NCBI RefSeq assembly: GCF_003018115.1
Contig: NZ_CP027457.1
Direction: 5' to 3' (one strand)
Origin: Escherichia coli
GTDB taxonomy: Bacteria > Pseudomonadota > Gammaproteobacteria > Enterobacterales > Enterobacteriaceae
Length of the DNA: 64,000 nucleotides
Of the stretch, positions 4,602 to 5,127 are shown in pieces (the stretch's first letter is position 1; the number at the start of each line of letters is the position of its first letter). The notes under the pieces are model-generated. The model saw nothing but the letters and a program-made list of their open reading frames with translations, was not told the origin of the DNA and ran no database searches. Position numbers and translations under genes: made by a program.

Positions 4602-4691
4602 TTACTTCAGGTATTTCAGAACAGCATCAAGCAGTTGCAGTGCTGCAACAATGAGTTTGAGGATAAGAATGGCGATATCCACCAGGCTCAT
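4602..4691 (-). CDS. tisB: Type I toxin TisB (29 aa, SOS-induced membrane peptide)
   Basis: Minus-strand translation gives MSLVDIAILILKLIVAALQLLDAVLKYLK, one residue different from K-12 TisB as I recall it; below the 60-aa cutoff of the ORF track; located between emrD and ivbL as in K-12. Confidence 0.8.
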   Translation of the reverse strand: MSLVDIAILILKLIVAALQLLDAVLKYLK

Positions 4692-4926
4692 ACGCGTCTC
4701 CTGTGGTTCAGGAGCACTGCCAGCTGACGTACCTTTCCGCTGCCTGTTGCCAGCTGTTGTGCACGCGGTATCTCAAGGAGAAACGTTGTGCTTGTTGACA
4801 TAACACAGTGTGCTCACGCGGGGTTAAGGCGCTGACGGCACCACCCGTTTCAGCCAGGACTTAGTGCGCCGGGTAACGATACGGCCCCCGCATAACACAT
4901 TGCGTACAGTGATATTATAGAAGTTT

Positions 4927-4946
4927 ACTGTATAAATAAACAGTAA
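4927..4946. promoter_or_regulatory. LexA box (SOS operator) of the tisAB/istR locus
   Basis: tACTGTataaataaACAGta fits the CTGT-N8-ACAG consensus; lies upstream of tisB on the minus strand. Confidence 0.7.
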
Positions 4947-4974
4947 TATTTAGACAAAACGTAAACTGTGATCG

Positions 4975-5127
4975 ATACTCAACTATGTACTAAATACGTC
5001 AAAATTCGTGCCGAAATTGCGCGTTCTGCGCGGAACAGGTATACTTTCAGTGTTGACATAATACAGTGTGCTTTGCGGTTACCAGCCGCAGGCGGCTGAC
5101 GAAACCTCGCTCCGGCGGGGTTTTTTG
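4975..5127 (+). ncRNA. istR: Probable IstR antitoxin sRNA region (IstR-1/IstR-2), divergent from tisAB; boundaries approximate
   Basis: Inferred from the known K-12 locus architecture (LexA box, divergent sRNA ending at a T-run near 5121-5126); ends not verifiable here. Confidence 0.35.

Follow-up and report, generated by a model that had tools for sequence, protein, structure and literature searches.

The closest described relative of the locus treated here is tisAB/istR-1 of Escherichia coli K-12 MG1655 (TisB, b4618; IstR-1 and IstR-2; Rfam RF01400), which sits between emrD-ysdE on one side and ivbL-ilvBN on the other. In that system, LexA controls both tisAB and istR-2 (PMC2826370, PMC11264685), the tisAB transcript has a size of 359 nt (PMC2577331), and a 21-nt complementarity with IstR-1 and a ribosome standby mechanism have been described (PMC4147584). 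A phenotype of tisAB deletion was seen under ciprofloxacin, whereas ampicillin and streptomycin revealed none, and the role of the locus in persistence is condition-dependent (PMC2826370). Variation beyond K-12 has been catalogued in a BLASTn survey of more than 2,000 E. coli genomes (PMC11264685). Other type I systems of E. coli linked to SOS or stress, dinQ/agrB, zorO/orzO and shoB/ohsC, are similar in that the toxin is small, hydrophobic and located in the inner membrane, its mRNA has a long and structured 5' UTR in need of processing, and a divergent, trans-encoded sRNA pairs far upstream of the ribosome-binding site (RBS) (PMC4147584), but they belong to different peptide and sRNA families and occupy different sites.

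We analyzed a 64,000-nucleotide stretch of E. coli DNA (hereafter, the window). On the sequence evidence, we put at about 97% the probability that positions 4549-5126 hold the canonical chromosomal tisAB/istR type I toxin-antitoxin locus of E. coli in intact form. The locus is already known, ordinary, complete, and in its usual place. It shares with K-12 the same site and architecture, the LexA box, tisA, the IstR-1 promoter, the antisense tail, the target site and the RBS. With the consensus of non-K-12 tis/istR loci it shares Ser2 of TisB and the conserved set reported there, namely the tisAB -10 element, LexA box, standby site, RBS, IstR-1 promoter and 37-codon tisA (PMC11264685). The window peptide matches the TisB models specifically. 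The differences from K-12 are at 4569, 4687 (Ser2), 4881, 4952 (in the istR-2 -35 element), 4962, 4988, 5038 and 5095, together with ~140 bp of additional dispersed-repeat DNA separating ysdE from the tisAB terminator. The differences from the published consensus are the istR-2 -35 element, which falls in the ~5% minority without TGGACA (PMC11264685), and the base at 4881, which occurs in no complete RefSeq genome. No new biology is implied, and Ser2 is a species norm that has already been characterized; what the analysis adds is the exact coordinates of all parts (Table 1), the correction that Ser2 is the norm, and a private single-nucleotide polymorphism (SNP) near +27 of the mRNA.

Table 1. 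Features of the tisAB/istR region, in window coordinates
Feature	Position	Strand	Description and basis
tisAB intrinsic terminator	4549-4582	-	12-bp perfect stem 4555-4582 with T-rich (U-rich) tail; 3' end put at ~4549
tisB CDS	4602-4691	-	29 aa + stop, MSLVDIAILILKLIVAALQLLDAVLKYLK; ORF list, profile matches, RefSeq annotation at the aligned position
tisA, 37-codon ORF	4688-4801	-	tisAB 5' region, DNA identical to K-12; ORF list
tisB Shine-Dalgarno sequence	4697-4702	-	AGGAGA, 5 nt before the ATG; read from sequence
IstR-1 target / ribosome standby region	4794-4814	-	~+94 to +114 of tisAB mRNA; repeat and duplex prediction
tisAB transcription start (putative)	~4907 (±2)	-	fits the 359-nt transcript and the position of the IstR-1 site
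tisAB promoter -10	4914-4919	-	TATAAT; read from sequence, same -10 in PMC11264685 Table 1
LexA box	4926-4945	both	TACTGTATAAATAAACAGTA; motif search, identical in K-12; between the tisAB -10 and the istR-2 -35 (4951-4956)
istR-2 promoter	4951-4979	+	-35 TAGACA 4951-4956, 17-nt spacer, -10 GATACT 4974-4979; promoter scan
IstR-2 sRNA, ~140 nt	4987-5126	+	5' end placed 7-8 nt past the -10; Rfam match covers 4997-5126
istR-1 constitutive promoter	5017-5045	+	-35 TTGCGC 5017-5022, 17-nt spacer, -10 TATACT 5040-5045
IstR-1 antitoxin sRNA, ~75 nt	5052-5126	+	within the Rfam match; 5' end placed from the -10 position
Overlapping ORF ≥60 aa (83 aa)	4476-4727	+	ORF list
Overlapping ORF ≥60 aa (70 aa)	4591-4803	+	ORF list
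Overlapping ORF ≥60 aa (165 aa)	4979-5476	-	ORF list

Chromosomal context

When positions 4540-5260 were used as a megablast query against 5,426 complete E. coli genomes, 5,419 were matched, 4,150 of them with at least 80% query coverage. The best match was strain F9792 (99.9%), and K-12 was colinear at 98.5% DNA identity over 721 bp. Among the matches listed, RefSeq annotates "type I toxin-antitoxin system toxin TisB" and ivbL in the full-length matches. A four-way alignment found the window and K-12 to be colinear across the whole emrD-ysdE-tisB-istR-ivbL-ilvB interval, and the annotated regions of K-12 and F9792 have the gene order emrD, ysdE, tisB, ivbL, ilvB, such that the conserved context from emrD to ivbL-ilvBN appears both in the alignment and in the RefSeq annotation of these two strains. 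In the window itself, the identity of ivbL is backed by NCBIfam (78.6 bits), and ilvB corresponds to a 562-aa open reading frame (ORF) at 5460. The sequence elements, family memberships, complementarity and synteny on which the identification rests are present in the window, and we found in it no sequence evidence against an intact tisAB/istR locus.

An initial annotation, made from the sequence alone, had recognized a known tisB/istR locus here and had named lack of alignment to K-12 as the observation that would overturn this reading; the colinear alignment bears the reading out. The range that it proposed, 4602-5127, holds tisB and IstR. The strong hairpin terminator that it placed downstream of the toxin gene is also present, but lies outside a range beginning at 4602, and the start should be moved to ~4549.

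TisB, the tisAB transcript and the LexA box

The region 4300-5500 was read on the minus strand, with ORFs of at least 20 aa listed. Over its full length (residues 1-29 of 29), the peptide product scores above the cutoffs of the two NCBIfam TisB equivalog models (NF011340, 69.9 bits against a cutoff of 53; TIGR04459, 61.5 bits against 38), and it passes Pfam PF13939 as well (37.6 bits against a gathering cutoff of 25). The hexamer that precedes its start codon is the one given as the tisB RBS in Table 1 of PMC11264685.

Base-by-base alignment of the coding sequence with K-12 finds a single difference, at 4687, where the window has C and K-12 has T on the plus strand. Codon 2 is consequently AGC (Ser) rather than AAC (Asn), and the initial description of a peptide one residue away from K-12 TisB proves exact, with N2S as the only change. 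Ser2 is carried by 85% of E. coli tis loci, making N2S the consensus form of TisB (PMC11264685), and the 61-nt segment around codon 2 has an exact match in 3288 of 4358 carrier genomes, a denominator that is approximate because megablast needs a 28-nt exact word for short queries. We considered Ser2 as a notable variant and rejected it, since it is the majority allele and Asn2 of K-12 the minority form. TisB-N2S has been shown to be toxic upon induction and, at low induction, to be more toxic than the K-12 form, with no difference between the two in ciprofloxacin persistence (PMC11264685). The TisB of the window is presumably toxic as well, given that it is identical to the TisB-N2S peptide tested in that study.

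The 3' end of the tisAB transcript is put at ~4549 because the transcript then has the published length of 359 nt (PMC2577331). A start at ~4907 would place the IstR-1 target at +94 to +114, the tisA AUG at +107 and the tisB AUG at +217. RNase III, in work by Darfeuille in 2007, reportedly cuts tisAB mRNA at +106, which is expected to lie within the IstR-1 target. The tisA stop codon overlaps the tisB start (ATGA), and the target of IstR-1 falls in the tisA ORF. We found no family for the TisA protein in Pfam or NCBIfam at an E value of 1 or better, in agreement with reports that tisA is untranslated (PMC2826370, PMC11264685).

Downstream, the terminator hairpin lies 20 bases past the tisB stop codon. 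Its two arms (4555-4566 and 4571-4582, 12 nt each) pair perfectly around a 4-nt loop, GUAA (UAAC in the computed fold), and the predicted fold has a free energy of -24.4 kcal/mol (z = -5.8), a stability reached by 0 of 200 shuffled sequences. Upstream, +3 to +22 are predicted to base-pair with +85 to +105 in the full-length mRNA, a fold consistent with the published finding that the primary transcript is inert (PMC4147584, PMC2577331). A permissive Rfam search of 3800-6000 returned no curated RNA family for the tisAB mRNA or its 5' UTR on the minus strand; the sole match on that strand was sub-threshold (Termite-leu, 19.8 bits against 51) and fell on the terminator hairpin. The other matches in this interval, STnc310, P6 and mir-1275, were far below their gathering scores and fell on terminator-like or repeat hairpins.

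We searched the whole 64-kb window for TACTGT-N8-ACAGTA with one mismatch allowed, taking the expectation from shuffles. The LexA box in Table 1 is the only such site, against 0.06 expected. Its outer 5+5 bases are palindromic, and 18 of its 20 positions match TACTG(TA)5CAGTA. The edges of the CTGT-N8-ACAG core are 237-252 bp upstream of the tisB ATG, in line with the distance of about 240 bp noted at first inspection. Judged by sequence, then, the shared tisAB/istR-2 promoter region appears to carry its LexA box.

IstR sRNAs and their pairing with tisAB mRNA

Rfam RF01400 (istR) matches 4997-5126 on the plus strand with 144.8 bits against a gathering score of 45 (E = 2.4e-31), covering model positions 1-130 of 130; two base pairs were flagged as non-canonical. 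Only two matches in the 64-kb window reach gathering level, this one and tRNA-Sec. The initial annotation had given the sRNA an inferred end at 5127 and had suggested a covariance check. The model now locates IstR, with an end 1 nt away, and matches it from end to end at roughly three times the gathering score.

Within IstR-1, a single-stranded antisense tail (5052-5072) is followed by an internal stem-loop, a terminator hairpin (5101-5124) and a T run to 5126; the terminator was found independently by a terminator scan. The predicted fold of the sRNA has 12 unpaired nucleotides at the 5' end and then two hairpins (-32 kcal/mol, z = -3.2). The 5' ends that we place for both sRNAs, to within about 2 nt, agree with the lengths that Vogel et al. 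are said to have found in 2004, 75 nt for IstR-1 and ~140 nt for IstR-2. A 22-nt direct repeat links this region to the toxin mRNA, with copies at 4793-4814 and 5051-5072 that are identical at 21 of 22 positions (95%). Because the repeat is direct and the two transcripts are divergent, the 5' tail of IstR-1 is complementary to the tisAB 5' UTR; the one position at which the copies differ becomes a G·U pair. This complementarity of ~21 nt lies ~100 nt upstream of the tisB RBS. RNAduplex predicts an IstR-1/tisAB duplex of -45.2 kcal/mol, in which the interaction is longer than the 21-nt core.

The istR-1 promoter hexamers, TTGCGC and TATACT, are those given for IstR-1 in Table 1 of PMC11264685. 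[quoted passage not shown]

LexA binding, transcript ends, processing and physiological outcome can be proposed for the window by homology and from the literature on the K-12 system (PMC4147584, PMC2826370, PMC11264685). In the resulting scheme, LexA bound at 4926-4945 would repress the promoters of tisAB (minus strand) and istR-2 (plus strand), and its removal upon DNA damage would allow synthesis of a ~359-nt tisAB transcript running from ~4907 to ~4549. The full-length RNA would be translationally inert, its 5' end being paired with ~+85 to +105; loss of the initial 41 nt would yield the active +42 form and expose a single-stranded standby site ~100 nt upstream of the structured tisB RBS. 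IstR-1, made constitutively from its own promoter (~5052-5126), would pair with the standby site through its 5' tail, blocking standby ribosomes and triggering cleavage by RNase III. Once tisAB mRNA exceeds IstR-1, the 29-aa hydrophobic TisB would be made and would enter the inner membrane, where collapse of the proton motive force and of ATP would lead to dormancy and persistence. With the locus intact, the strain would be expected to have the SOS-linked TisB route to fluoroquinolone-tolerant persisters.

Departures from K-12 and neighbouring sequence

The transcribed tisAB region departs from K-12 at just three bases: 4569 in the terminator loop, 4687 (N2S), and 4881. The last is A on the plus strand and corresponds to ~+27 of the mRNA, where the window has U and K-12 has C, within the 5' stretch responsible for holding the primary transcript inactive. 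The 61-nt segment around 4881 has no exact match in 4352 carrier genomes (again an approximate denominator) among complete RefSeq E. coli, and the base may reflect either a private mutation or an error in sequencing. We considered an effect of this SNP on the mRNA fold and rejected it: the minimum free energies for the two alleles are -134.4 and -133.8 kcal/mol, the standby site has the same probability of being unpaired in each, 0.385, and the main helix between the 5' end and the standby site is kept. With that helix and standby accessibility unchanged, the SNP is predicted by modeling to be neutral.

The remaining changes concern the sRNA side. The istR-2 -35 element is TAGACA as a result of the substitution at 4952, whereas K-12 has TGGACA, the sequence present in 94.5% of loci (PMC11264685). 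Two further SNPs lie in or near this promoter, at 4962 and 4988. The G at 5038 creates a non-canonical pair in, and weakens, an IstR-2-specific stem, and the change at 5095 turns an A-U pair of the IstR-1 stem into G·U. Across 4922-4982 the window sequence has exact matches in 19 genomes, and across 5008-5068 in 57, O169:H41-type strains among them; the 28-nt word of megablast makes the denominators approximate here too.

How might these changes matter? It is conceivable, though we think it very unlikely, that the C-to-U change at 4881 together with the rare istR-2 promoter haplotype shifts the threshold for TisB activation in this strain, say by changing 5' processing or by making translation leakier. 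If true, the locus would be a naturally occurring variant in the regulation of an SOS-linked persistence switch. The same variants could be taken further, as signs that the locus is a decayed, non-functional remnant whose expression or regulation has been lost, a reading that might draw as well on the absence of the locus from about a fifth of E. coli genomes, which suggests that it is dispensable. Yet the ORF, RBS, tisAB -10 element, LexA box and IstR-1 promoter, and likewise the IstR-1 antisense tail, the mRNA target site and both terminators, are intact and identical either to K-12 or to the majority form. The private base at +27 leaves the predicted sequestration of the standby site unaltered; TAGACA and TGGACA agree equally well with the -35 consensus, each at 5 of 6 positions; and IstR-2 has been reported to be unnecessary for tisB repression (PMC11264685). 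We therefore regard decay as extremely unlikely and retain the reading of an intact tisAB/istR locus.

The initial annotation had also pointed out that a 60-aa ORF cutoff misses the locus, which is true by construction, and an ORF track of that kind lists three other ORFs instead (Table 1). That these are the real genes and the 29-codon ORF is incidental has practically no chance of being right: they are the only ORFs of at least 60 aa overlapping the region, but none has a Pfam family at an E value of 0.1 or better, their NCBIfam matches reach only 12 bits against cutoffs of 140-700, RefSeq annotates none of them in K-12 or F9792, the 165-aa ORF crosses ivbL and istR, and the two shorter ones (70 and 83 aa) tisB and tisA, in each case in antisense orientation, and the 29-codon ORF, by contrast, passes curated equivalog models. 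With no family match above noise and no annotation in the two RefSeq records, we rejected all three as genes. The lesson for annotation is that length-based ORF calling can miss a functional 29-aa toxin and its non-coding antitoxin while reporting spurious ORFs of 70-165 aa.

Depending on the query used, tisB/istR is absent from 1,068 to ~1,270 of the 5,426 complete genomes, such that about a fifth of complete E. coli genomes would be without the TisB route to persisters. In a tisB-less arrangement such as that at 2334-2577 of NZ_CP195448.1, ~245 bp of unrelated sequence lie between ysdE and ivbL, in the place equivalent to ~4357-5180 of the window. Copy-number variation of the tis/istR locus has been reported as well (PMC11264685).

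Several minor observations concern the neighbors of the locus. The start codon of ysdE (24 aa in K-12) at 4265-4267 is ATG in K-12 and ATA in the window and in F9792; the codon just before it, at 4262, is an in-frame TTG, and RefSeq still annotates ysdE in F9792 under the same protein accession. Between ysdE and the tisAB terminator, the window has ~170 bp (4357-4526) where K-12 has ~30 bp, a net gain of ~140 bp. This segment has two 27-nt arms that are 85% complementary (4370-4396 and 4447-4473) and is a dispersed repeat, found in a median of 3 and up to 8 places per genome and present at 80% or more in 1,497 of 5,426 genomes; it is similar to the small, GC-rich repeat elements found in extragenic E. 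coli DNA. On the other side, the ilvB leader peptide IvbL (5256-5354, plus strand) has Phe (TTC) at residue 6 in place of the Leu (CTC) of K-12, owing to a SNP at 5271, and this Phe form (WP_001312198.1) is common to F9792 and the tisB-less strain.

Farther along the window, tRNA-Sec (selC) lies at 46098-46188 on the minus strand. The 24.5 kb that extend up to it (22000-46500) contain, according to the annotation of matching genomes, eilA (a HilA-family regulator), iatC (an inverse autotransporter adhesin) and setC, along with type III secretion translocon and tip proteins of the SipB/YopB and IpaD/SipD families. This segment looks like the selC-adjacent eip/eilA island of enteroaggregative E. 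coli; it is at least 80% covered in only 68 of the 5,426 genomes.
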